Positions 12,989-37,265 of a DNA stretch of 42,788 bases are shown here, in pieces. The stretch is from contig JBNGIO010006129.1 of assembly GCA_049999805.1 (NCBI GenBank), positions 27,473-70,260 on the forward strand. The letters run 5' to 3'. The notes beneath the pieces are model-generated. The model searched no databases. It saw only the letters and a program-made list of their open reading frames with translations, and was not told where the DNA came from. The position numbers were made by a program, and so were the translations under genes. How positions within the stretch are numbered: position 1 is the first letter of the stretch; each line of letters opens with the position of its first letter. Source of the stretch: Folioceros fuciformis (lineage: Eukaryota).

Positions 12989-14452
12989 CTCTCGTCTGCC
13001 CTCTGAATTGTTGAGGCATTCACTGTTAGTCAACTGTTAGCTTGCTGTGTGAGACCTACGTGGATCGCCTGAAGAACATTTTTCAGGGGACCCGTGTGAA
13101 ATGGGGGATTGCTTTTCTTTAGGATTGAATGAAAAGGAACTCTTCGAGTCTCCTCAACAATGGGTAAAGTGGTGTGCAGGTGCAGAAGCGACCTCTGATC
13201 AAGAGAATCAGGAAGGGACGGGACATACTGATTCACGTCCTTGCGTTTTGTATTGAAGAAATTCAGTATCTGACCCGCGGCTGGAAAAGCAAATTGTAAT
13301 ATCCTGGTTTTTGGGCTCTTCTATCTGGGCGTCGGGGCACATCTTTCTAGTATCAGGTATCGGCATCGGGAAGGGTTGACGGGTTGTAGCTGCATCAGCT
13401 GGCTACCTCCTCTGTAATATTTCTGTTGTAGAAGAAAACAGCCTGGGTAGAGAACGGATACGTCCCCGCTGCGAGCTATCCGTGAACCCAGATCACTCTG
13501 GTTATCGAGAGCAAGCTTGATAACTGGATGTTGCAGGCATCTGAAGGATATATGGACTAGAGATTTTCACGAAACACTCGATGTCTCGTGTGGCAAATAC
13601 CACAGAGGCAACAGCTCGCGCCTGGAGCTGTGATTACCCTTCCTGTGCAGGAAGTGTAGGGAGGGGAGGGGAGGTTACAGAAATAAACACGTATTACACA
13701 CGGTTCCACGATGGGTATCAGATAGTTGGACGATCATCTATTGTTCTCTGTTGGTGAGATGAGAAAGTGACTCTCGCTCTTCTTTGGAGTACATGGTACT
13801 GTGTAGGGGCGTGCCACTTCATGGGATTCCTCAAACCTGCGATCTTAGCACAAAATCCTTCGTCTCTTTCCTCGGTTCGCGACCGCTAGTAGAGATGCGA
13901 TCGTCGTGCAACATCTTGAAATCGGAACCTCAGAATAAAACATGCAAGTCAATATGCTCAAAATCAAGTCGACATTGGCCATGCGGGTCAGAGATCTAAG
14001 CTTTATGGTTTCCCATCTGAAGTAAAAAGAAGACTTTCCACCTTCCTTCCTTCCTTCAGGGAATTTCCATGAAGCTTCTCTTAAAGTTCATGAAATCCAG
14101 GGCATCTGAAAATGAACTGTTCATGCCAAGTGTCAACACCGCTGCAGAGCACATTTACAGTATCAAAACAGCTCAAGAGCCTATCTACAGTGTCAACTCA
14201 GGTCGACGAGTACATGTAGTTGGTTAGTTTTCTGCGTCAAGGGGACTGCAGATGTGACCCAGCGAGTATGGTCCACCACAACAACCAAGAGTTATGGATC
14301 AGAGGTTTTATATCTCACAGGGTGCCAGCCATCCAGGCCAGTTCACAGGCATTTTTCATCCGCTAGCTGCAGCGATAGCGGATGAAAGGAACTTGCCTGA
14401 ACTGCAGTCTGTTTCCGTCCAGGCTATACGTATACTCGAACTACTTCGAGTC

Positions 14453-16499
14453 ATGACTGCAGCACGAGGTGAACCTGCGTGGCCTAGCGACGAGGAGGTT
14501 TTACAGGAAATTGAAGCTGTCAGCGAGGACGCAGCGACTGTCCAACAGCAACTCCTGCAAGGCATATTGGAGAAGCATCGCTCCTGCCGCTATCTACAAA
14601 ACCTGGGCTTGGATGAAAAGACTACATTGGAGACTTTCAAAGCCAGCGTGCCCCTTTCTAAGATTTCAGACAATCTTGATGATTTCGAGAAGCTCTTGGA
14701 CGGGAACACGGAACCTCTTCTGTGCTGCTCCCCTCCTATTGCATTTGTCAGGAGGTTGTCGGTTCCGCCACTGCTGCATAGATTTTTGCCATTTGGATTG
14801 CCCCTTTCTTTTAGAACTTATTAGAACAGCAGTTTGCCAACTTCCCGATCGCTCATGGTATCGTGCTTTGAATTCGTACAGTTCAGGGACTTCTGCTGGT
14901 AAAACGAAGTACTTTCCAGTGACCGAGGAATCCGCTCATGCTCAGGGCCTTCTACCGGCGCATCCATGGGCAATTAGACAAAGGTATGATCGCTCTCTAG
15001 CCTGCAACGTTGTGTCTGCACTACTTGTAACATTGTGAGACTGTTGAATGTGCAGCGGCTTCCCCAGCAAACTATCTCCTGGAGTAGGGAGGGCGGGACT
15101 TGTCTACACTGCAGGAAAGAGACAAGCCACCAAAGACGGTGCGAAGGCCAGCACAGTCCTAACAAGATTCCTGGACAGTGACGAATTTGAGTACTTTCAC
15201 AAGCACGTGGCCCACATCGCAAGCCCGATAGAAGTACTGCGAGCTGACGACGGCGGAGATGTTCCGATCGCTTGAGGCTTGGTGGCCAAGCCTGTGCAAT
15301 GACATCAAGACAGCAGATGTGAACAAGGACATTGTTACCGATTCTGTGATCAGAGAAGCAATCTTGTCTACGGTGAGTACATAATGATGTCCGCATGCCG
15401 AAAGTCCTTCACATTCAGCAGTCTTGGATCATGTAGGAGAGACCGTTACAGCCTTCACCTCTGACTTCCAAGTTGTTCAAGCTGCTAGGTGTTGTCCAAG
15501 CCGCTCCCAGATATTGCAGACCGTATTCAGCAGGAGTTGAACATGCAGCGGAATGGACTCGTGCTGCGCCTTTTTCCCAATCTCCAGTACCTAGTGTGTA
15601 TCGGCACGGGTCCCATGAAACCATTCTCTACTGTTCTTGATGGCTACACAAGCAAAGACTTCCTAAAGTTGGCACTTGGTTACGGCTGCTCCGAAGTGGG
15701 CCATTGCGCCTTCCCACTCCAGAAGACTCTCCACGATCCTGAACTCTTTTGCTTGTGGCCAAAGCTCGCCTTCTACGAGTTTCTTCCGGTAGCACAGGAT
15801 GAAGCAAGGGCTGACGATCTCGCGGGGGTGGCAGGGGCAGTGGAGTATCGAGAGGAGCAGACGCCTGTGGAGTTGACAGAAGTGAAGCTGGGCCAAAAGT
15901 ATGAGCTTCTTGTCACCACGTCAGCAGGATTGTACCGTTACCGCGCCGAAGATATCCTCTAGGTGATACACTTCCACAAGTCGCTCCCGATCTTCAAGTT
16001 TGTCTGCCGCAAGGGAGTGATGCTGAGCATCAATACCGATAAGACTGACGAAGCTGAGCTGCAGATTGTGGTGTCCAAGGCCTCTGAAAGGCTGGAAGAA
16101 GGGCTTGATCTCCCTCTTGCAAATTATGCCAGCTTTGCTAACCATTCCACTACTCCTGGTCATTATGTGGTCTACTGGGAGCTGGAAAACTACCCAGCGG
16201 CAAGCCCTCTTGATGCAAAACGAGTTTTGCAGGAATGCTGTGACGTACTGGACTCCTCGTTCAACGAGCCCTACCGACGAGGACGGAAAAACGGATCCAT
16301 CGGCCCTCTGGAGCTAAAACTCGTCAAGCAGGGAACATTCACCAATTCAAGAAACTATGCTGTGCAGCGAGGTTCCAGTCTCTCACAGTACAAGACTCCT
16401 TGCTGCGTGGTGAACCCCGCACTGTTGGAAATCCTGATGCAAGGGGTAGAAGTCTCCTTTCGGAGTTCCTTCACAGCTTGGGGACATATTCAGGCCTAA
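14453..16499 (+). pseudogene. GH3: GH3-family acyl-acid amido synthetase, disabled
   Basis: Exons 14453-14754, 14882-14983, 15056-15372, 15489-16499. Motifs SSGTSAG, YGCSE, YELLVTTSAGLYRYRAED, DKTDEAEL, PGHYVVYWEL, SIGPLELKLVKQGTF, QYKTP. Lesions: frameshifting deletion near 15252 and in-frame TAG at 15960-15962. Confidence 0.88.
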
Positions 16500-18486
16500 C
16501 AACAATTTAATGTTGATGGCGCGGGTCTTTGCAAGCGGCAAATTTGAAACCCTAAACCTGATCATCAAGAATGGGAAAAGGCCATACAGTCATAATAGGA
16601 TTCTCTCATTGATGAGAATGGCACTTCGAGAGTTAGCTAAATTACCTCCTGGCAGGAAAATGGTTTCATGCAAATAGGTATTTAAATTCAAAGTTAAAGC
16701 AGATGGCACATTTGACAGGTATAAGGCTAGACTTGTAGCAAGAGGTTTTTCACAAATTCCAGGTGTGGATTACTTGGACACTTATGCTCCTGTGGCCAAG
16801 CTACCAACCTTCCGAGCCATTTGTGCAATATCACCATATAAGAATTATGAGCTGTAGATGTTTGATGTCAAAACAACATTTTTGAATGGTAAGCTTGACA
16901 CATAGATTTATATGCAACAGCCTCCTGGTTTTGAAGTAGAGGGGAAGGAGGAATACATTTGTAAATTGAACAAAACCTTATATGGCTTGAAGCAGTCTCT
17001 GATGGCTTGGAATGGAGTGTTGGATGCTGAACTCTTAGCCTTTGATTTCACCAAGAGCCAAGCACATAGAAGCCTGTACATTTATAACAAGAATGATATT
17101 GTGTGTTATCTGGCAGTGTATGTAGATGATCTAATTCTGTTTAGTAACAATCTAGCTTCCATCACAACTATCGCAGACCTACTGCCCACAAAGTTTAAGA
17201 TGTCGAACCTTGGCCCTCTATAGAGTTGTCTTGGCATATATGTACAGCGCAACAGAAAAAAGCAAGTCATAACTCTTACACAACCAAGATACTTGCTATC
17301 TAGCATAGAGCAGCTAGGTCTAAAAGATGCAAAACAAAGTGCAACACCCTTACCTTCTGGTCTGAAGTCAAGCAATGAAATGTCACCTCAGACAGTTGTT
17401 GAAAAAGGAAAAATGGCTTTAGTTCCTTATAGACAAGTCATTGGTAAGTTGATTTATGCTGCTAATGCCACCCATCCAGAAGTAGCCTTTGCAACAAGCT
17501 CTCTCTCACAATTTCTTGAGAATCTTGGTCAAGAGCATTGACCATGTGCTAAAAGAGAGTTTAGATATTTGAAAGGAATTCTCAACAAAGCCATTAAGTA
17601 TTGCCACACCCCTGGACAGCACTTGAGCTTGAGGTCTACACTAACTCAGATTATGCTGGCAACATAGACAACAGAAAGTCAGTTTCTAGTTATGTTGTTA
17701 GTCTTGCTAGCGGGCCAATTTGCTGGATGAGTAAGAGCCCACAGTAGCACTCTCAAGTACAGAAGCTAAGTATAGGGTACTCGCAGCAGCAACAAAGGAA
17801 GTAATTTGGTGCACATTGCTGTTGAGTGAGATGGGTATAGTTTTTACCAACGTGCACAGTGATTCGCACATATAATCAAGGCTCGATGTTATTGGCTCAG
17901 AACCCTGTCTTCCATGCTAGAATAAAGCATGTAGAGGTAGAATACCACTTCATTCGTGACCTTGTCAAAGCTGGCAAAATCAATCTAGAATACATTCCAA
18001 CACAAGAGAATCCAGCAGATATTTTAGCTAAAGCTCTTGGAAAGGAGCTTCATGAAAGACATGAGTAGCAGTGGGTCCTAGCTACGACGGCTGAAGGAAG
18101 AGCTCTCTTCCTTAGAATAGTCATTCAAGAAAGAACCAGAGCCAATGTCAGATTCTCCTAATTGGGAACTGACTTCATCTGTTTTGGACGAATCTGGTGT
18201 TTTTTTTTTCGCGAAGGAAAAAATCTGATTATTCGCAGCCTAGGTTGCAACAAGGGTACAGAAGTTACACATGCAACTGAATGAAAAGTTAGCATGCAAG
18301 CTAATTCTATTCTGCAAAAACAAGTACACCTGATCTATCCTATGGGCGGGAGATACCTGGCCCTGATGGTGCTTACCTGCCCGAAGAGCAGGCATGGTCC
18401 CACTGGCCATTATGTCGAAGGAAGCCTGCTAGCTTCCACTCTTTCCTTCTGAACTTAGAGTGGGCGGAATTTTGCATGCTCCATGA

Positions 18487-18695
18487 TGTTACGATATATA
18501 ATCTGGGTTCAGGGTTATATATATATTTATATATACATAAGTAAACGTAGCTGTTGTTAGCAGCCTAAAGTTTAGGATTGTGAAGAGTCATGACTCTTAA
18601 CAATTTTGTATATAAGACATATCAGTGCTTAATTTAATCATCTTTCTTGGTTTTGGCAATTGAGTGAGCATGCGTTGCTCTCAAAAACTTTAACA
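18487..18695. mobile_element. Solo LTR (209 bp) inserted in the LINE
   Basis: TGTTA...TAACA termini flanked by 5-bp TSD CATGA (18482-18486 and 18696-18700); AT-rich. Confidence 0.85.
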
Positions 18696-21148
18696 CATGA
18701 CCACAAGAACCTATTCCCAAATGCGCCATAACACAGCTTTCCCAGAAGCCGGATTGTTCCCGCCATAGACCATTGCCGTCCAGTTTTGCCACAACAAGAA
18801 AAGAGACAAGGACCAAACCACTTCCCATCATTGGTACTGAAGTAGCGGCCCCCCGACTGCCCATCTAGCCCGAATAAGGCAGTTTGCTCGGTAACCAAGA
18901 TGGTCCTCTCAGGGAGAAGTCCCTGCAACCACCGGCCAACTTCGTTCCATATACCTTGCGCATAGCTGCACTGATAGAAAATATGTTGGCTTTCATGAGG
19001 GGTGCCAACATTGCATAGCCTGCAACATTCCTCCCCCGTAGCCACCAATAACTCGTCCCAACGGTCTACATTAGGCAAGCAAGCTTGAAAGAAACACCAG
19101 ATGGTAACCCTCACCTTGGGGGGATCCTTAAGGTCGACCACAAGAGTTTGATCGTGGCCCTCTGCCGACGCTAGGACAGCCTCAACCTAGGGGCCAATCG
19201 ACTTTGCCAAAGAGATTTTTGTATGCGTACCAGTCGGAGGAAAATGACAGTAGACGGAAAGTTGAAGAGTGACTTCGCGGTTGCCTGCTTACTTCCTAAG
19301 CTCCCAGGCCATGTATAGAGGTCGGAACACATCACTAACTCCCGGTTCTCCTTCAAGCGAAACCAACACCTTACTGGACTTTGTTGCCTTGCTCTTCCTG
19401 TGTAAGCTAGTGACCCGCTCGCCTAGCCCTGTAAAGCATAGTAATCCCTCTTAGGGCTACTCCACCGATCACTCCTTCCTCTCTACCTCTCTCCTCTAGA
19501 AACCCCGATGTATTGAGAGTCCTATAAGAGAGATTTCTTTTATCATCTGTTAGTGAAGACACAAGAACCGCTCTATCAAAGTTCGGTAGGGGTCCATCCA
19601 CCTCGTAGTCGGAACCACATGACCTATCTTCCATGGGGTAAGCCCCCCACATATTGATGCCCACTTAGGCCTGCTGTAATAGTGCTTGCTTCACCTCCTT
19701 TGCCATCCCTTCCTGTAGCCAAGAAAGCATTAGTCACAAATGTCGAATCGGAACCCCAAACTCATCTCGCGCCTCCTCTACTATTTTCCAGCCGTCCTCT
19801 ATTCGGTTCCACAAGTCGCCGAGTTGCACAATGCCTCTTCTACAGGACCGGTATACCCATGAAAGGAAGTCCTGTGACCACAACCCCTTAAAGCCTTGGA
19901 GAGGGAGGCCCAGCACATCATCCCTATTCCTAGGCTTGGCTAAGAGAAGGAAGGTTTTAACCTCCAAAAAGCTACGCCATATGGAGGCAAGGAGAGGAGA
20001 GCATTCCCTGGTGTCCAACAGGGGTCTATCTGCCAGTAGGTTGTCCATAGACCTCCGGCCTCGGGCAACCGCTTGAGTTTGCTGTAAGTGTTGGGTTAAC
20101 CAACTTTTCCAAGGGTATCCCATTGGGCCTGCTGCCTTCAGAACCCATTGCGCGTGTAGAACCTTCATTTTTCTCGTGAGGTCCACCAACCCAAGCCCAC
20201 CTCAACGCTGGCTCTGAATAATATGTTGCCACACCACCTTATGGGAAGAAGAGAGCAACTCCTTATACTTGCTCCATAAGAAGTTAGAAATAATCTGTTG
20301 CAATCTCCTCAAGTCTAGCTTGCTAGGAGCCCACAAGAAGAGATAGTATCACAAGGAAGCGGTCAAAATATGGTTTATGACCACAATTCTGCTTGCCAAA
20401 ATAAGATCCAAAAAACGTAAGCTGGTTGCCTTCCGGATGAGCCGGAGGCACACATATTTACCAATCTCTGCATTCTCATTCTCTTCCTGGAAAGGCAAGC
20501 CGAGGTACTTATGTGACGAGCCGGGCTAGACCCGCACTATATGCCTGATGCAGACGGGAAGCTCCCCCTGCATGTTTAATGCACAACATCCTAGTCTTAT
20601 TCCAGTTCACTCTACACCCGGATAGCTGCCCAAAAATTTGTTCCTGAGAGAGCAGGGTTGTTAAGGAAGTCGTATTTGCCGATGAGAAAAGCAAGGTGTC
20701 ATTAGCAAATGCTGAGATGCGCAACTGCAAGCCATCGGGATTCTGAATGCCTTCTATCCTTGAGTCATGCTTGACTTCTCTCAAGAGAAAGTCAGTGACA
20801 ATGACGAATAGGAATGGGGCCAGAGGGCAACCTTACCGAACTGACCGCGTAATAGCAAAGATGTCGGTAAAGGAGCCGTTGACAAAGACCATTGTGCCTT
20901 CATCCTCACAAAGAATTGCAATCCACCTCCAAAAGTTGTCACCAAGCCCAAAACTTCGCAGACATCTCTAGAGGAAGTGCCACTCAATAGAGTCATAAGC
21001 CTTGTAGAAATCTAAGGAAATGAACACTGCTGGTTTGTGTTGAGACAAAGCGTTATACTTAGCCTCACGCAAAATCAGCAGGTTGTCTAGAATACACCTG
21101 TTCTGGACGAAACCCCGTTGCTCCACCTCCAACCACTCGTCTAGAAAG

Positions 21149-21340
21149 TTAGAAGTACAGACCACGTTGGTTATGGTTAACTTAGCTAAATCCAGTGTGG
21201 TCATACCCTTTGGTATCTAATACCAAAGAGGTACAACTCTTCAAACACAGGCTATAAAAGCCCACCTCTTATAATCAATTTTATCAATTAGTAAAGCACT
21301 ATCTTTGATCAAAACGCTTCCGCAAAGCACTACAAACTCA
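21149..21340. mobile_element. ~190-bp insertion (solo-LTR-like or MITE-like) within LINE RT
   Basis: TSD GAAAG (21144-21148 / 21341-21345, or a 6-bp AGAAAG). Removal restores LINE frame ANKLKPFL-DEWLEVEQRGF. Ends in CA but begins TT. Confidence 0.75.
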
Positions 21341-21881
21341 GAAAGGGCTTGAGCTTGTTTGCTAAGACCTTAGCAATCACCTTGTAAGTCGTGGTTAGCA
21401 GGGTGATGGGTCGCCAATTAGCAATGGAGAGACTAGCATGTGTCACTTGTTTGGATCCATGAAGGATGCACACAAACAAGCTAAGACTAGCACAAAAGAA
21501 TAATAGAATTAATATCGGAAGTGTCCTTAAATACAAAATTGAAACGGTAGTAGTTAGACTGATTGGGTAATTAACCCGCGGGTTACTAAAACTAACCCTA
21601 ACGCTAACACTCCCACTTAACCCGCGTGGGTTAATGATATAGATACGGGTACAAGTAAGTAATACACTACGGATACGGATCAGCTACCACTTGAGGAGCC
21701 AAAGACTTCACGTGCATGCCAGGTCAAGCCCATGTAACAAGCATAAAAGCAGAATTCCAGCACCTCGTGACGAACGCTCCAAATTCCAGCATTGCGGCAT
21801 GAGCAGGATGAACGGTGTCTGGCTATAACAGGGATCTCCGCTATTGTGCTGTTCATAACCCTTGCGGTGGAGAGCGCAGTG

Positions 21882-22337
21882 ATGGCACCCAGAGAAGTGA
21901 AGTCGCCTCGACAGAAGCGTCCAAGGTCTCCTACAGCGCTTCAGGCTGGAAGCTCCAGCTTCTGTATGGACTGCGAGATTCCACCTAAGCCTGAGGAACC
22001 TGACACCAACGTCGACAAGGCGAGACAAGGGACGCCCAGACGAAGGAATGGGGACCCATCTTCTTCAACTGTTGACTCGACAGGAGACAAACCTTGGTAG
22101 CCCACACGCGCCGACTCAGACCTGCTATGGAACCTAGTGGAGACGCTGAAAACATGTCAAGAACTGAAGACCTTGCTGTTGGACGAGAGGGTGAAGACTG
22201 TGCAGCTTGAACGACAGCTAACTCAACGAAGCAACAACGACGGTGAAGACACCCTTGACCAAGGACGAAGTCAAGGCTGTGCAGGAAAGACTGAAGAACT
22301 TAAAAAACATTTGTGCCTCCCAGCTGATGACGACTAA
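21882..22337 (+). pseudogene. Antisense accessory ORF of the inner copia, with one internal TAG
   Basis: ORFs 21792-22100 and 22137-22337 are in the same frame, separated by a single TAG (22098-22100). Basic KSPRQKRPRSP motif followed by a coiled-coil-like segment. Confidence 0.5.
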
Positions 22338-22503
22338 AGGTAGGCATCTGTCACACACTCAGCAGGCTACCCACGTTTGAATAGATTCGATGAAGCTTCG
22401 TCCACTGAGTAACCTCCAGAGAAACAGCTTGTCTGCAGAACTGTCGTAAGCCCCGAGCACTGTAATGTGGACATCATGAACCAGACAAGCAATCATGTGT
22501 GTT

Positions 22504-25500
22504 CTACACAGCCTTAGGGACTGTTAGGGTAAACTGTCTTAGTCCCAAGGAGGACAAATGCTTGCAATGTTTTTCCTTCGGGAGGCCCTTAGTGAAAATG
22601 TCAGCAGTATTTTCATTGGTGTGTATGTAGGTCACCTTGATTGCTCCTCTTTCAGCCACATCCCTCACATAATGATGGTAGAGTTCAATATGTTTTGTCC
22701 TAGCATGGAAGCGAGGGTTCGCAACCAAGGCTATGGCAGACATGTTGTCACACCAGAGTCGCGTAGGTCCTGATTGTTTCTGCTGCACAGACGACAAGAA
22801 CTGGCGTTCCCATTCTAATTCCTTACAGGCATCTATCAGTGCTTTGTACTCAGCTTCAGTAGAGGACAAGGCCAGCGATGTTTGCTTTTTGCAAGACCAG
22901 TTTACGGCACCACTGGCCAGCAAGAACACATAAGCAGAAAGACTCTGCCGTGAGTCTGCATATGAAGCCCAGTCTGCGTCTACAAAACTGGTAAGTACAA
23001 AATCCTGTGAAGTGGAAGCTGTATAGTGTAGACCATAATCAATAGTGCCCTTCAAGTATCGGTATATGCGCTTAACTGCGGCCCAATGCACTTTACCAGG
23101 GTGCTGCAGAAACTGAGAGACTACACTGACACTGTGGCTGATATCAGGCCTCGTCCAGTTAGCCACAAGAATCAGGCAGCCAACTGCTTCGGAATAAGGA
23201 ATGGTAGACATTGCCCGTGACTCGTCATCAGACTGTGGGCAATGGTCTGAAGTGAGCTTTTCTCCCACTGCCGAAGGAGTGGCCACTGATTTCGCAGCAT
23301 CCAGGTGAAAACGTTTCAGAATTTCCTTGAGATACTTTGTCTGATGAAGGATGATAGTGCCTTGTGGTCTGTCACGCAGAACCTGAATACCGAGGCAGAA
23401 CTGAAGCTCCCCTTGGTCAGTCATCTCAAACTCCGACCGGAGCAAGTCCTTAACCTTGTTCACCTGAGACATACTGTTACTTAGCAAGATTGCGTCGTCC
23501 ACATAGAGTGCAAGCACAACAAACAAGGCACCGTCAGGCAGGTAAAACACATTAGTATCTGCAGGGGACTGGTGAAAAGCGGCCTTGAGAAGAAAATGTG
23601 TAATGTATTTATACCACGCACGGGGACTCTGTTTGAGTCCGTATATAGTCTTCAGTAACTTACACACTTTTTTCGGCGACTGCGGACTGACAAATCCCTC
23701 TGGCTGTTCCATGTACAGAGGTTCCTCCAACTCTCCATGCAGAAAAGCAGTACACACATCCATTTGATGGATCTCGAGATCAAAAGCAACAGCCATAGCA
23801 AGCAAGATGCGCACTGAAGAGGGCTTCACAACTGGTGAGAACATATCTCCATAGTCAATGCCTGGGATCTGACTAAAACCACGAGCAACTAGTCGCGATT
23901 TATACCGAGCTATTGTACCATCAGCCTTTAATTTTGTCTTGAAAACCCACTTACAGGTGATGGGTTTCCGTCCTGAAGGTAAATCTGAAAGCTCCCAAGT
24001 ATTGTTTTTGATTAAGCTGTTGTATCAGCAATTGACAGATGCCAGTGCTCCTTGTCAGGTCCAGACAAAGCTTCAACATAGGACTGTGGATCTGGACAAA
24101 CTTCAGGGACATGTAGGCTGGTGACATGAGCAGAAGGTTTCCTGAAGTCAATTGACTGATAAGGAGGTTCCACCCAATGTTCACGACCTTTATGTTCTCG
24201 GAGTGAATATCTGGGTGGAGAGTCTGGAGCTGATGCCTGTTCCTGGGCCTGTGCAATTACAGGTGTGGAAACAGCGCTATTATCATCAGACTGGTCCAGA
24301 TGTGTGGAACTAGCATTAGAATGCTCAGACTGAAGATCCTCATAGCCATCATAAGTAGGTATGTCAGCAACATTTTCGGGACCTAAATCCTCTACAGGCT
24401 GATCAAGATCAGCAGCTCCCATTGTTTGAACAGGAAGCTCTGAAGATACCAGCTGATCAGACAAGGGGTCAGAAGAATGAGGTAAGACGGACTAACCTAC
24501 CAGTTCCCCATCTGACTCTGGAAAAATATGTAGATCAGTTTCTTCAGAAGAACCATCTGACTCAACATTGTGTGAATTGGTCAACTCAGAGAAATCGGGA
24601 GACAAGGACAGGCGAGGAAGGGTCAATTCCAGGAAAGTAACACAACCTTAGAGGTGCGTCTGTCAAACAACTTGTACGCTTTTGACTCCTTGGAATACCC
24701 TATGAATACAAGTGGAATAGCACGATGGTCTAATTTATCCCTTTTTGCTTTAGGTACATAAGCGAAGGTTGGCGAACCAAACACTCTAAGATGTAATAAG
24801 CTAGGCTTGCGTCCCCAGAATGCCTCATACGAAGTGCAGCCTGATAAAGCTGAGGTGACGAGTCTATTCAAAATATAGGTAGCTGCCACAACAGCTTCTG
24901 CCCAGGAGGACTTTGGTAAGCCTGCCCAAGTAAGCATGCTTCTGGTCATACTCATCAACGTTTGATTTTTCCTCTCAGCAACACCGTTTTGTTGCTGTGT
25001 GTAGGGGACAGCAAGCTACCTGACAATACCATAGTGTTGAAGTAGGTCATCAAAGTGGAGACCTGTGAACTCTCCTCCATTGTCTGTTCTCAAGCACTTC
25101 ACAAGGCCGCCAGACTCACGCTGCACCATAGGGATCCAGGCAGCCACCGAGTCCAGCACATCCCTTTTGTATTTCAGAGGAAATGTCCATGTATACCTTG
25201 AGAAATCATTTGTGATTGTCAGGTAATACTCAGCACCACCTAAGGATTTAACCGGCATTTTTCCTGCGATGTCAGCATGTAGTAGCTCCATGACTGCCTT
25301 GGCACGATTCGGGGTATGATTCCTAAAGGGCAACTCCTTCTGCTTTGATAGGACACGGGAACTACACACAGCTAGGTGCTTAAAACACTATGGGAGACGT
25401 TCCCTATAGCAGTTTGAGACTGACATCAAATCCAGCTTAGTCTTGTTAACGTGTCCAAGACGAGCATGCCACAAAGTAGCATGAGCTGACGACGTAGCAC

Positions 25501-27103
25501 TTGTTGAGAGTGCACACATTGGTGAGTGGGCAAGTGTATTTAACTGATACAAATCATTGACCAAGACGGCAGTTCCAATGGGTGTATCAGGATCAGCTGG
25601 GTGATACAAATAGCACTTCCTATGTTCAAATCGGAAGCCAAGCTGTTGAGAGTGAGCAAGGGCCCAAATGGACAGCAGATTTTTGGACATACTAGGGACA
25701 AACAATACATCATGCAAACTAAGAGAATGATCAGCTGCAAGAGGTATGTGAACAGTCCCCATGCCTTTTACTTCCACTCCACAGGAATCACCTACATACA
25801 CTAGTTCTGGTGTTCTCCCCTGCTTTGAGTGGAAGGTGGAGAAGAGTGCACGATTGTTGCACACATGAGCTGTAGCACCAAAGTCCACAAACCAAGCGGA
25901 GGAGGATTCTCTGGAAGAGGTCAGGCAAACAGTAAGAACTGTACTACTGCTCTTTGGTTGCTGTCCTGAAAATTTGTTGTTCTTAGAAGTAACATGGGCC
26001 TCATGACGAATGTCCTTCTTGGGCTCCCCTGCCTTCTTTTTCCGGCAATCTCGTTCCCAATGCCCTGGGATCTGACACCAATTGCAGTTCCCTTGACGTT
26101 TAGGAGTTGAAGATGAGGGAAGGGCAGGTAGGCTTGGACCTTTCTTGCCGTTGAACTTCCCCCGTCCATAAGACTTGCCTTTAACAGCATAGAGGACTTT
26201 CTCGCCCCGGAGACGAGAAGAAGATCCACCCTTATGCCTGCTTTGTTCCTCTTGCAGAAGGGCTCCCACTACTCCATTGAAAGTAATGAGAGAAGGTTGT
26301 TGGGAACCACCAGCAACATAGGAGGCTTGTAAGGATGCATTCTGACTGGAGATAAATGTCTAGAAACTTGCAGGCAGGCTAGACAGCAGTTGAGCAACTG
26401 CATCCACCTCCGTAAGTGTACTTCCCAAATTAGCTAATTGCGACCTCAAATGTCGAAACTTGACAATATGGGGTCCAACCGGATCTCCTTCACGCAACTT
26501 CAAGCCAAAGAACTCATTATGAGCTGCAACGAGGGTAAGTATATTTTTAACTTGATATGTATCATGCAGTTGAGTCCAGACAGCAGCAGCAGTAGGCAGA
26601 AAATCAACTTCTGTAACCGTGCTTTCATCTAGCCCAGAGAGTAGAATAGCAAAAGCTATCTTATTTCCTCTGTTCCATTTGTCCAACTGAGCTTATGTAA
26701 CACCAGGTTGTGTAATGTCAGGCTTAGACTGAGACCCATCAATGAACTCCCACATGTCACGCGTGTCCAAAAAAGACTTCATGCGAGCCCGCCAACTCTC
26801 GAACCGGGTAGGCCTTCCATCAAAACGATCTTTTTCCTTGAAGTCTCCTGAATAAGGAATAGCAGTTGTAGTAGTAACTGCCTGTGACATCGTGGTAGTT
26901 GCAGAACCGGGCTGGACACCGGGATTTACTGATTGTGTGGTAAACGCTCCAGTAAGGACAGTAGGAGCCAAGGTATTTAGGTAGTTCCTAATGGTGTCAG
27001 TGATTTGAGTCTGTTCCTCTTGATCAGAATCAACACTACTAGCCAGAGATGCATGATGAGCAGAGGAACCATGAACAAATGACTCACTATCATCATCTGA
27101 CAT
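22504..27103 (-). pseudogene. Copia gag-pol (gag, zinc knuckle, protease, integrase, RT, RNase H) with stops and frameshifts
   Basis: CNWCQIPGHWERDC, WFVDFGAT, LWHARLGHV, RTDNGGEF, QQNGVAERKN, LALYVDDAIL, FVDADWAS, TEAEYKA, HARTKHIEL. Stops at 26693, 26360, 25388, 25016; frame breaks near 24630 and 24020. Confidence 0.95.
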
Positions 27104-28810
27104 CAGTCAGCACAGGACACTCAGAAACAGCAGGTAAAATAGAAGTATGTGAATTGATACTTGAGTTTTTAGCAAAACCCTAAAAAGTAACGAAACGACA
27201 CAACCGACAACCTTTCACAGGAACTACGAAGATGAAGTGTCTGAACAAAAACATCACGACAGAAACATCACAGACGCGACCAAACATCACGCCTCTTCAC
27301 ATCAGATAGGTGCTGCGTTGGCGCGCGCCCGAAGCGACAGCAATCGCCACGACACCTGTTCAAATCTGTGAGAAAATCAGAGTGGCAACGAGCAATCCTG
27401 CTCACACCCACCAATCTGATCGGCCAGGGAAGACATGATCAAGTCCACAACTGAATCCAACGAGCCCCTCCTCTGGTAATTTCCAGCCTAAAGTGTTACA
27501 GCGCTCTCGCTGTGGGTAATGGTCTTTAAAGTTGAAGCTAATCGATCCATGTGCTGCATGTGATTGCGTTGCAGATTCGACTGAAAACTATCAACTTGAA
27601 CTTTAAGAGCACCAAGAGCGAAAGCCTGCTGTCTGCGAAATTGTTCTTCAGGGAATTCCAGACGTCGTGGCTGACAGGGTATGTTAACCCTCTCCTTGGA
27701 ACCAACAGAACGATTACCCAAAATCTGATCACGAGTGCACTGTTTCTGTTGACAGTTGGGGACGCCAACTTGAGAACGAGGATTAAACGACCGGCTAAAC
27801 CTATGTTGTGAGAACAACATGGCGGGACGTCCCTCTCTTTTCTTCCCCATTAGACAAGATCATTTGCAGTTTCTGTAATAATTCATAGCAAACTGAGGAG
27901 ATTGACTCGAAACTGCAGGTAGGTGTAGGCGCCTAAGCACACTACCACATGCTTAGCAAAAATTGCTAAGCCCGTGGTTATGTGCTTGGACGGTCTATCA
28001 CTACCCGCTAATTAGTCACTAAATCTCTATATTGCTCTGATACCATGTCACTTGTTTGGATCCATGAAGGATGCACACAAACAAGCTAAGACTAGCACAA
28101 AAGAATAATAGAATTAATATCGGAAGTGTCCTTAAATACAAAACTGAAATGGTAGTAGTTAGACTGATTGGGTAATTAACCCGCGGGTTACTAAAACTAA
28201 CCCTAACGCTAACAGCATGTTGTTTAGGTAAAAGGGAGATGAGGCCCAGATTAAACCATGGCCCATACTACCTCCTTCCCATACTATCGTGTTGACTGCC
28301 TCCATGAAAAGCGGACTCATAAACTCCTAGCCCCAAGCGAGAAATTCGGGGGGGATTCCATCATGCCCTAGAGACTTGTTCCTCGGCATCTCCTTCAACG
28401 CTTGAGCCACCTCAACAGCTGTGATGGGCTTGTCAAGAACACTGCGTTGCACCTTTATCACTTTAGCAGTAAACTACCCATAGGATGAGCTCCAAAGATC
28501 CTCCCAACCTGCCAGCTTTCCGAGACTTGCAAAAATCCCTACATAAAAGTAGGTGATCAATTTTTTCAAGCCACTAAGGAAGTCTTGCCTGATGCCCTGC
28601 GCATCGGGGAGAGCGGGAATTCTTGACTTGTGTCAATTCGCTACCACCTTGTCGAAGAAGAACTTAAAGGGGCAGTCACCTTCTTGCACCCATTTCACTT
28701 TCGCCCGTTTGTACTATCCCCTGGCTCTATCCTCTTCAAGCTTTGCCAAGTCACATTGAATTTCCTGAAGCCGACTTTCCTCTTCCCCAATTAGCGCTCA
28801 CACTTAAGTT

Positions 28811-29729
28811 ACGAATCTAGTGTATATAGACTGAATAGAGATTTGGTTCTTTTCTTCTCTCTCTTTCTTGCTTGACCAGAGAGCCTTCTATCAGAATTCA
28901 AGTCTGCTTCTTCCTCCATCCGTGTGGTGGACCCTGCCACAAATAGTGGGAGCTTAGAATGCCTCCTGCTTCACAATTCAACATAGTGAAGAAATGTTTT
29001 TTCAAATATATCAGCAGCCAAAGACGAGTATTAGCCTCATATTTGCAACTTACTGTAGGTGCTGACAACATGCCCCGGAAACAGCCAACAATTTTCAACC
29101 TTTATGCGCTCCATCGTTGATTTGATGTAGCCCACATCAACGTTGTACCAAAGAGGGCTGCGTGGATGCTTGAGGGAACCAAATGTGACGATATGTGTTT
29201 CCTCATCCAGGCTTGATGGGATAGGAAAGCTCAAATGTTGATTTTGATCAGTCTCAAATTCCCAAGAAGGAAGTTTTGCACTCACAGCTTTGGTCGGCGA
29301 AACCTGTTTTGCAATCTTAGGCATCGCGCTAATTGGACGAGGTGCTGAAGATCCTCCCATGGAGTTTTGAGATGTAGTGGGGTTCTTGCAGTGCTGAAGA
29401 GTCCTTGTGGCGGCGCTCTGAGAGCTCTTAGGTCTTTGCTTCCTGTCGGCGCTGCTGCCCATTGTTACAGAAGACGCTATTTTTCTCTTGTTGCAGGCAG
29501 CTGCTCCAGTGGCGGCAAACTGCCCTAGGGCGTCCCGTACCTAGCATTGACGCTTAGTCAGCGCTCCGTCAGCAGGAGTATCCATGTCGCAAAGCTCCGC
29601 TAGTTTCTACTCTAGATGGCTTATGAACGTGATGCTAAGGGCGTAAAGGAGAATAAGGATGGGAGCAAACCTGTATTCAGGCTCCAACTTTGAGTTGTTA
29701 TTGCACTCCATCATGTCCAAAGGTGCCAT
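28811..29729 (-). pseudogene. Antisense accessory ORF of the outer copia (continues at 18187-18078 after LINE excision; ~343 codons)
   Basis: One frame from CCATGG (ATG 29729) through the TSD to TAG at 18078-18080, with five internal stops and no frameshift. Confidence 0.55.
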
Positions 29730-30178
29730 GGAGAGGTGTTGGTGTAACGCAATGCTTACTCCGCTGCGACGGCCCTTTGTGGATCTAAAGCTTAAGAGAC
29801 AGTCTCACGAATAGCTCACGGCGGCTACAACTGTCCTTGAATCTTAATCAGCAAGTGGGGGTAATGATAAATAGTGCTGATAATGATTAAAGGGTTTATG
29901 CTGTTAAGATAAGACATGTTGGGTTATGGTTAGATAGAATGCTTAAGTGACGTTACATAAGAGTCACGACTTAAGTGAACAGCTACAACGTTTCAGTTAG
30001 TTTAAGTTGTGTTTTGTGTTTATAAACTAAGACTCTTTTCTTGAACCAATAATGCAAATCTTAATGAATTAATATATGTTTTTTGCATTTACCTTTATAA
30101 TTTGTCACAAGCATTGTGGATGGAGGAGGAGGAAATACCTTAGGCATTTGAAAGTAGACAAGCATCATGGATAGAGGA

Positions 30179-30390
30179 GAAGGCCATACCTTAGGCATAA
30201 ATAGGCATCTTGTCTTGTCTAGTCCTTGCAATAGTGTATACTTATATTTATGCCTACACCTAGTATGTTTATTAACATTGTTAAGAAGGCCATACCTTAA
30301 GCATAAACAAGCATCTTGTCTTGTCTAGCCTTTGCAATAATGTATACTTACATTTATGCCTACACCTAGTATGTATGTTAACATTGTTAA
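30179..30390. repeat. 106-bp tandem duplication (2 copies)
   Basis: GAAGGCCATACCTTA.GCATAAA...TTAACATTGTTAA at 30179 and 30285; partial extra copy near 30128-30147. Confidence 0.9.
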
Positions 30391-36619: not shown

Positions 36620-37265
36620 CAGATAGCTTTGGAGGGCTTAAAGAGCAAGAATGTTAGAGTTGGCATGTGGGTATAGATTGCTACACACTCGTTACAAGTA
36701 TACTTGAATAAAGAGCAAATTGAATGTTGTATGTGAAGTGATAGCTTTGGAGGGATTGAAGAGCAAGCTTGTGAGAGTCGGAAGTTGGATATACATTGCG
36801 AGGCTCTTGTGTATTCTTGAATAAAGAACATGCTTTGGAGGGAGCTTGTGAGAGTTGACAATTGGATAGGGATTATAGAGCAAGCTTGTGAGAGTCGACA
36901 ATTGGATAGAGATTACAGAGCAAGCTTGTGAGAGTCGACAATTGGATAGGGATTATAGAGCAATCTTGTGAGAGTCGACAATTAGACATAGATTACTAGG
37001 CTCTTATTGTAAGTATTGTTGAATAAAGAACATATTGTGAAGGGATTGAGGAGCAATCTTGTGAGAGTTGACAATTGGATAGAGATTATAGAGCAAGCTT
37101 GTGAGAGTTGGGAATTGGACATAGATTGCTAAGCTCTTATTGTAAGTGTTATTGAATAAAGAACATTCGATGGAGGGAGTGAAGAGCAAGACAGATATAA
37201 ATTACTAGGCTGTTATTATAAATAGATTGCTAGGCTCTGGTTGTAAGTATTCTTGAATAAGAACT
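36620..37265. repeat. Minisatellite: 40-bp unit nested in longer degenerate units
   Basis: GAGCAAGCTTGTGAGAGTCGACAATTGGATAGGGATTATA at 36838, 36878, 36918, 36958 and again at ~37050-37130; recurring TTGAATAAAGAAC blocks. Confidence 0.9.

Follow-up and report, generated by a model that had tools for sequence, protein, structure and literature searches.

A conserved antisense gene, predicted to be spliced, between pol and the 3′ long terminal repeat of a Ty1/copia clade in Folioceros fuciformis

The stretch studied here (the window) comprises 42,788 nucleotides of Folioceros fuciformis DNA (assembly GCA_049999805.1, contig JBNGIO010006129.1, positions 27,473 to 70,260 of the forward strand). 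Between pol and the 3′ long terminal repeat (LTR) of a decayed Ty1/copia retrotransposon in this window, a reading frame runs on the strand opposite to pol and is split by a long interspersed nuclear element (LINE). The locus raises the question of whether this frame is a gene of the element and, if so, what kind of protein it specifies. To our knowledge, plant copia elements have been taken as gag-pol only, save for the sense-strand env-like open reading frame (ORF) of Sireviruses. Comparison with related copies indicated a conserved antisense gene with two predicted exons, of which the window copy is a dead, LINE-split version. The coding-sequence lesions of this copy appear to be two nonsense stops in exon 1 (codons 41 and 63) and the LINE in exon 2.

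Read from the ATG at 29729, the minus strand gave a frame of 306 codons, with stops at codons 41, 63, 231, 233, and 253; the other five frames over the same region contained 10–20 stops in 302 codons. A search of the 87-Mb genome assembly with a natural 252-aa stretch from a sister copy revealed at least 76 matches, down to 24% identity. These were antisense and just 3′ of copia reverse transcriptase-RNase H (RT-RNase H) wherever pol lay in the fetched stretch, and the antisense placement between pol and the 3′ LTR held in most copies of the lineage. The preliminary description of the locus had made its gene depend on the linkage of 28824–30107 to the RT family. This linkage was proven, because three LINE-free sisters (C2934, C3114, and C6274; 85–89% identical) ran directly from RT-RNase H into 28811–30107.

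Differences at third and second codon positions were compared over seven disjoint pairs. The third position was the more variable in a core domain of 75 aa that closes exon 1 (0.47 vs. 0.27, p = 2e-11), in exon 2 (0.54 vs. 0.34, p = 1e-5), and in an N-terminal hydrophobic leader (0.52 vs. 0.33, p = 1e-4). The predicted intron showed no codon periodicity (0.45 vs. 0.39, p = 0.3). The ratio of nonsynonymous to synonymous substitutions (dN/dS, Nei-Gojobori) was 0.12–0.55 for the core (defined in 17 of 20 pairs, the other three being saturated) and 0.05–0.64 for exon 2 in 14 of 20 pairs. A dN/dS below 1, which the preliminary description had proposed as a test, was obtained for these two parts. 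In the core, P, T, P, Y, M, H, S, and Y were nearly invariant, and the invariant residues held across 24–30% identity.

These results bear on the explanation that no protein is made and that the conservation comes from RNA or DNA signals (the polypurine tract (PPT), LTR-proximal elements) or from chance. A conserved non-coding signal, a second PPT, does lie in the region, and one opposite-strand frame that shares third positions also gave a low ratio of nonsynonymous to synonymous differences (pN/pS). However, the pol-strand frames were closed by 10–16 stops in 302 codons, codon periodicity was present in both exons and absent from the intron, and residues remained invariant at 24–30% identity. 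This explanation is largely refuted and seems extremely improbable. The sequence almost certainly represents a real protein-coding gene, which is conserved as protein, under purifying selection, across one copia clade.

Protein similarity among the copies broke off sharply at YS[KE] and resumed as S..R[LI].EE after YAG, in phase 1. At the profile-defined column, a GT donor was found in 44 of 50 distinct copies (GTAAGT in 29, GTGAGT in 6). The base before it varied (A in 43, C in 5, T in 2), so that the residue is S, R, or C while GT is constant. Acceptors could be assigned in 49 of 56 copies, and 37 of the 42 distinct ones ended in YAG, a count that is partly circular since the acceptor finder preferred AG. 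The 26 intron types were 76–158 nt long and fell into frame classes of 13, 9, and 4; neighboring host introns were 82–218 nt long. The second PPT core, AGTGGGAG, was present on the pol strand in 27 of 41 distinct introns, against 0.09 expected from shuffles. In 20 of these 27 it lay 9–12 nt from the acceptor, and on the gene strand it forms a pyrimidine-rich stretch before that site. The 120-nt stretch 29053–28934 is very probably a phase-1 intron. The exons measured about 170–235 and 65–100 codons, and the spliced product would, by arithmetic, have 302 aa from the first ATG and 254 aa from the second. In the single contig-level RNA run, host joints were spliced, no contig covered 29328–31300, and no piece or joint listed fell in the gene, which is evidence neither way. 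For a young member of the family, no RNA data set was listed.

The preliminary description had read the locus as one frame of about 343 codons, without frameshift. The antisense frame does continue across the LINE, 18187–18078 carrying on in the matching frame to the stop, but the gene is instead predicted to have two exons and about 302 aa. All four close sisters covering the site had one extra base at 29037, inside the predicted intron. The unbroken frame of the window copy is thus a coincidence, because its intron measures 120 nt only through one missing base (121 nt in the four sisters). Frame-breaking indels, which would have spoken against the frame, occurred in sisters only inside the predicted intron, apart from scattered copy-specific lesions. 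The five stops had been placed correctly. Those at codons 41 and 63 are true nonsense lesions; those at 231, 233, and 253 lie inside the predicted intron and do not count as such, and stops 231 and 253 were present in all four close sisters. That each stop is one C>T change away from a sense codon carries no weight, as this holds for any stop codon. The tail-to-tail arrangement with RNase H was borne out as far as the convergent stops are concerned (9–23 nt apart in several intact relatives); its tightness in the window reflects a deletion of about 62–70 nt at the RNase H end.

The RT-RNase H tree contained 76 rows (32 with the gene, 36 without it, and 8 undecidable), where a negative row is one without this gene family only. 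One clade of 34 rows (support 99 in the Shimodaira-Hasegawa-like approximate likelihood ratio test, SH-aLRT) consisted of all 32 gene-positive rows, the window RT, and one undecidable row. The window row had been scored negative solely because the LINE separates its RT from the gene, and none of the other 35 gene-negative rows fell inside the clade. Placing the RT in a tree had been suggested beforehand, and the window RT fell in the gene-carrying clade. Most gene-positive rows had been found via the gene. Most negatives came from one other clade, which makes the outgroup uneven. Six loci fetched by RT-RNase H alone (L014, L022, L024–L027) also fell in the clade and carried the gene.

The carrier is a Ty1/copia element by its domain order and copia-type RT and, in relative L083, by paired LTRs, a 5-bp target-site duplication (TSD), a primer-binding site (PBS), and a PPT. 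The domain order in sister L058 was GAG-INT-RT-RNase H, and RVT_2 (PF07727) was present in nearly all of 120 homologues listed for the RT-RNase H of a sister. Three full-length relatives of 7.0–7.2 kb carried the gene, with LTR pairs 97–99.6% identical; those of L083 were 271 bp long and 99.6% identical. One copy had an open pol frame of 1459 codons beside two open exons. The near-identical LTR pairs and the open pol and exons indicate that the gene travelled with recently active elements. The clade was composed of many low-copy families. Its nearest public RT-RNase H sequences were at most 44% identical, except for two Logan-contig fragments (75 and 81%). In a FastTree analysis with 53 public RT-RNase H sequences, only the included Logan fragment fell inside the clade, and no named angiosperm row was found there.

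The features of the locus are listed in Table 1. The window copy lacks everything 5′ of about 16557, and of the terminal structures it keeps only the PPT and 3′ LTR. The insert was identified as a minus-strand LINE because a zf-RVT domain is present. A LINE with a 13-bp TSD had been described; the LINE and the duplication were confirmed, while the two copies proved to match at 12 of 13 bases rather than to be identical. An AT-rich insert of 218 nt at 18481–18698 in the LINE was missing from the LINE contigs of the RNA run.

Table 1. Features of the LINE-split copia copy and its antisense gene (positions in the window)
Feature	Position	Strand	Remarks
Decayed copia RT-RNase H of the host element, 5′-truncated	16557..18068	+	Inside gene-carrying clade; about 62–70 nt shorter at RNase H end than sisters
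Exon 2, 3′ part: acidic Ser-rich tail and stop codon, convergent with pol	18078..18187	-	Contiguous with 28824 upwards in sisters
LINE TSD, left copy	18188..18200	.	12/13 bases as in 28811–28823; T run adjoins
LINE inserted in exon 2	18201..28810	-	Poly-A end on left; zf-RVT domain; contains nested copia and 218-nt insert
Nested full-length copia of other RT clade	21441..28214	-	LTRs 99% identical; 5-bp TSD; PBS; LINE contigs join across it
Second antisense gene (predicted), of nested copia: hydrophobic leader, basic start, long helix	21771..22360	+	Broken in window copy
LINE TSD, right copy, within exon 2	28811..28823	.	
Exon 2, 5′ part: conserved S..R[LI].EE start, then basic cluster	28824..28933	-	
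Predicted phase-1 spliceosomal intron, 120 nt, GT...AG	28934..29053	-	Inferred by comparison; contains three of five in-frame stops
Second PPT core AGTGGGAG, inside predicted intron	28945..28952	+ (pol strand)	
Conserved 75-aa core domain, end of exon 1; predicted small beta-strand domain	29055..29279	-	Alignment, AlphaFold2 model of relative, dN/dS
RDxxGRF-type motif, RDALGQF in window copy	29520..29540	-	Nonsense stop two codons upstream
Second ATG, positionally conserved, codon 49	29583..29585	-	
Hydrophobic leader, about 20 aa	29613..29672	-	Nonsense stop at codon 41 comes after
First ATG	29727..29729	-	ATG in 6 of 8 sisters compared; other 2 unaligned there
Terminal PPT	29853..29861	+	
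3′ LTR, about 246 nt	29862..30107	+	Sister similarity stops at 30107

The preliminary description had noted an N-terminal hydrophobic stretch; it was present and varied like coding sequence, as given above. The maximum 19-residue hydropathy of the leader was at least 1.7 in the gene frame in 14 of 21 deduplicated copies, and this was frame-specific. In 15 of 21 copies, an AGGT preceded the second ATG by 76–96 nt; a reading of the leader as a mere 5′ intron was disfavored by its codon periodicity. Alternative splicing at the leader is possible. The second ATG had a purine at −3 in all 21 deduplicated copies having it and C at −4 in 17 of them; two further copies lacked this ATG. A membrane-anchored long form could be the main product, an env-like or movement protein that would bind the nucleic acid of the element and dock it at a membrane or plasmodesma. 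For env-like ORFs of plants, roles of this type have been suggested (available part of PMC7264820). This explanation would fit the coding constraint and the hydropathy of the leader, and a similar leader precedes an unrelated antisense gene in the clade of the nested copia. However, the leader was frame-broken in three subfamilies in which the core was intact or nearly so, and the start context of the second ATG was strongly conserved; the long form is therefore unlikely to be the main product.

Downstream of the second ATG, a motif of the RDxxGRF type was found in its loose form in 36 of 37 distinct exon-1 copies and in its strict form in 21. A GRP core like that of AT-hooks was present in 22 of the 37 copies; no Pfam AT-hook match was obtained in 17 exon-1 members or single proteins. 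An AlphaFold2 model of the 75-aa core of a natural relative, cut at the exon boundary, predicted five short beta strands with a predicted local distance difference test score (pLDDT) of 87. Exon 2 encoded an acidic and then a basic stretch, followed by a D/E/S-rich tail. The basic clusters that the preliminary description had mentioned were present in the protein.

Pfam gave nothing meaningful (best E-value 0.034, in 1 of 17 exon-1 members), and PF04195 and PF10536 had no match in the 17 members or in single proteins. The only match among PDB sequences had an E-value of 0.63. Among 1.84 billion representative sequences, five hits were each scored over 4–10 short stretches, and the three inspected were tandem-repeat artefacts. 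Among 5.8 billion proteins, none of similar length was found and none among the 8000 longer candidates scored, which is weak evidence. The ESM Atlas gave no usable match, and IMG/VR gave two 10-residue chance matches only. In metagenome contigs, searched with one 75-aa query, none of 125 pattern matches was confirmed. These protein collections hold few spliced eukaryotic transposon genes, and the blanks do not prove absence. Foldseek with the 75-aa model found no match at E ≤ 0.001 in PDB or BFVD. The best VIA-align result had Z 3.2 and a root mean square deviation of 3.9 over 64 residues. These fold searches show neither a new fold nor a difference from known ones. Rfam returned nothing in 16500–30200. 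In full-text literature searches, to which subscription papers were mostly closed, no report of a plant copia element with a spliced antisense gene was listed.

The closest parallels in position came from gypsy elements. Antisense ORFs of unknown function between pol and the 3′ LTR are described for Grande, RIRE2, Retand, PvRetro13, and Boty, and the Grande GENE23 product is nuclear and has its own promoter (available part of PMC7264820). Retand TRP28 is a predicted DNA binder present in 97% of clusters (available part of PMC11963269). The present gene resembles this aORF-3R or eORF-3′R class (gene23 of maize Grande, rice RIRE2, TRP28 (PF04195) of Retand, and the plant mobile domain (PF10536) of Ogre) in its position between pol and the 3′ LTR, its antisense orientation, its lineage-wide presence, and its basic motifs suggesting a nuclear protein, as far as the available parts of PMC7264820, PMC11963269, and PMC6317226 describe that class. 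It differs in its Ty1/copia carrier, predicted splicing, hydrophobic leader, intronic second PPT, and lack of a meaningful Pfam match. As in the aORF-3R class, most copies of the lineage have the gene in antisense orientation in the stretch from pol to the 3′ LTR, and it is conserved as protein.

Among copia elements, the nearest counterpart was SIRE (Sirevirus), which shares an extra gene in the linker between pol and LTR, a hydrophobic segment, and extra copies of a PPT octamer (available part of PMC2829016). In the same source, multiple PPTs are a Sirevirus feature and single PPTs are found in classic copia. In SIRE the ORF is sense, the octamer AGGGGGAG occurs in about four copies, and elements average 9.9 kb; here the gene is antisense, one extra AGTGGGAG occurs (27 of 41 introns), and elements are about 7.0–7.2 kb, so that the PPT likeness is in kind only. 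In the available part of PMC6317226, extra ORFs of SIRE are 74% 3′ forward and 1% 3′ reverse. Besides this 1% in SIRE, the same part lists no 3′ reverse ORFs in Ale, Alesia, Angela, Bryco, Gymco, Ivana, Lyco, Osser, TAR, or Tork; small values stand for Bianca (5, 2) and Ikeros (4, 6) in columns that are not readable, and supplementary files 1 and 3 may hold reverse copia ORFs (PMC6317226). The gene does not belong to the TRP28, plant-mobile-domain, or SIRE env-like ORFs. Its layout has been described in gypsy elements and is apparently rare in copia, and the protein family is one without an assigned relative. The earlier proposal of a poorly described copia accessory gene thus agrees with a conserved antisense gene between RNase H and the PPT, under purifying selection and of a type rarely recorded for copia.

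AT-hooks are read as DNA-binding and acidic tails as chromatin-contacting. Basic arms, a folded core, and an acidic tail together give the make-up of a nuclear DNA- or chromatin-binding regulator. Tentatively, the protein may well be a nuclear accessory protein of this kind that regulates the element and promotes or protects its own expression. The antisense mRNA would come from a backward-facing promoter that lies within the 3′ LTR or slightly inward of it. The intron would be removed from this mRNA, yet never from genomic RNA; as it lies on the strand opposite to that RNA, it would survive retrotransposition. The intron stretch would also supply, on the pol strand, another plus-strand primer. 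A basic protein of about 254 aa would be translated from the second ATG; its RDxxGRF and AT-hook-like arms would grip AT-rich DNA, with specificity coming from the beta domain. Histones or the transcription machinery would be the partners of the acidic Ser-rich tail, and expression from the element's own LTR would be favored or shielded from silencing. The first ATG would add a hydrophobic anchor that holds the longer form at a membrane. VANC proteins are anti-silencing proteins of VANDAL DNA transposons. The present protein would be like them a transposon-encoded accessory protein acting, putatively, on the chromatin of its own element. VANC comes from DNA transposons and is a different protein, and no sequence link was seen.

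The same basic and AT-hook-like motifs could serve a tether: the protein would carry the pre-integration complex to the nucleus or to selected chromatin and would affect the landing site, not transcription. The strict co-inheritance with one RT clade would agree with this, and nuclear import of the pre-integration complex was proposed for such ORFs by Vicient and Casacuberta (available part of PMC7264820). However, a protein from a separate antisense mRNA would not be packaged with Gag-Pol by default, and the acidic tail suits a regulator equally; a tether seems rather unlikely. Copy-number control in Ty1 is an analogue for a further explanation, self-restraint, in which the protein, or antisense RNA overlapping RNase H, would limit copy number. 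With stops 9–23 nt apart in several intact relatives, the 3′ untranslated region must overlap pol RNA, and the clade consists of many low-copy families. Regulation mediated by double-stranded RNA was proposed in the available part of PMC7264820. Action by RNA only leaves the protein-level selection unexplained, and self-restraint is considered improbable.

Several points weigh against a spliced antisense gene for a nuclear regulator. The donor was GC in one copy and TT in five near-identical copies, and no acceptor was found for 7 of the 56 copies, besides the circularity of the YAG count. In three subfamilies, including a young one, the leader and the second ATG were in different frames. The subfamily of the window is without the AT-hook core (KQRPKS). 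Compared with three close, decayed sisters, whole exon 1 gave a dN/dS of 0.80–1.02 and did not follow the core and exon 2; this is as expected, because these copies are decayed and the middle part is loose. The tree came from a quick search, not a careful one, and the function was inferred from motifs alone. The TT-donor subfamily (L080, L084, L085, L087, and L098) had an intact exon 2 and may use another donor or have spread unspliced.

The nested copia of Table 1 has a PBS that we take to be of the tRNA-Met type. Its antisense protein carried a conserved LLWHL..TLEKC.EL motif and was modelled as one long and one short helix. In tblastx comparisons within its clade, 86 of 90 diverged pairs matched best on the antisense strand, and a profile of the protein matched 18 of 29 loci. 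Homology to the main family was rejected (hhalign probability <0.1%). A third type of antisense ORF, with a coiled-coil-like stretch, was found in a sub-clade of nested-type elements (L117, L120, L124, L125, L133, L137, and L139). It ended in CxxC...CxxC in L120, L125, and L139, and two PPT copies occurred in L120, L125, and L137. Antisense ORFs behind pol in L118, L121, and L130, of the second clade, started with MARTKQ or MARxKH, which presumably resembles the N-terminal tail of histone H3.

A GH3 gene (PF23572) lies at 14258–16499 (+), with an in-frame stop at 15960–15962; a lipase gene is also present, and these genes together with the short introns would fit a land plant whose genome is compact. 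The copia remnant begins about 58 nt past the GH3 stop codon, so that this GH3 copy may lack its 3′ end or be pseudogenic. The segments 36620–37260 and 30107–30389 held degenerate repeat arrays, with spacings of 40, 117–118, and 133 nt, and, immediately past the 3′ LTR, short tandem duplications of 51 and 106 nt.

Taken together, the results may point to a deep, unsampled copia lineage with the first copia trans-acting regulator of its own chromatin. Its spliced antisense gene would have two starts that switch a new DNA-binding protein between membrane-tethered and nuclear forms, and its intron would be a second plus-strand primer. The linker between pol and PPT would be an exchangeable accessory cassette, as in complex retroviruses, which neighboring copia clades fill with at least two unrelated proteins. 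As a whole, this joint reading is rather doubtful.

Vicient and Casacuberta urge attention to antisense and spliced transcripts (available part of PMC7264820). Neumann et al. (2019) counted unspliced ORFs of at least 250 codons (available part of PMC6317226). The present gene would be missed by such a rule because its exons have only about 170–235 and 65–100 codons, and antisense genes with introns may have gone widely unnoticed. Here, a gene of this type is kept by an entire copia clade that includes recently inserted members, and different ones are kept by other clades of this genome. They would provide several independent, compact proteins with which to study the function of antisense accessory ORFs in LTR retrotransposons, which has been in question since Grande and RIRE2.

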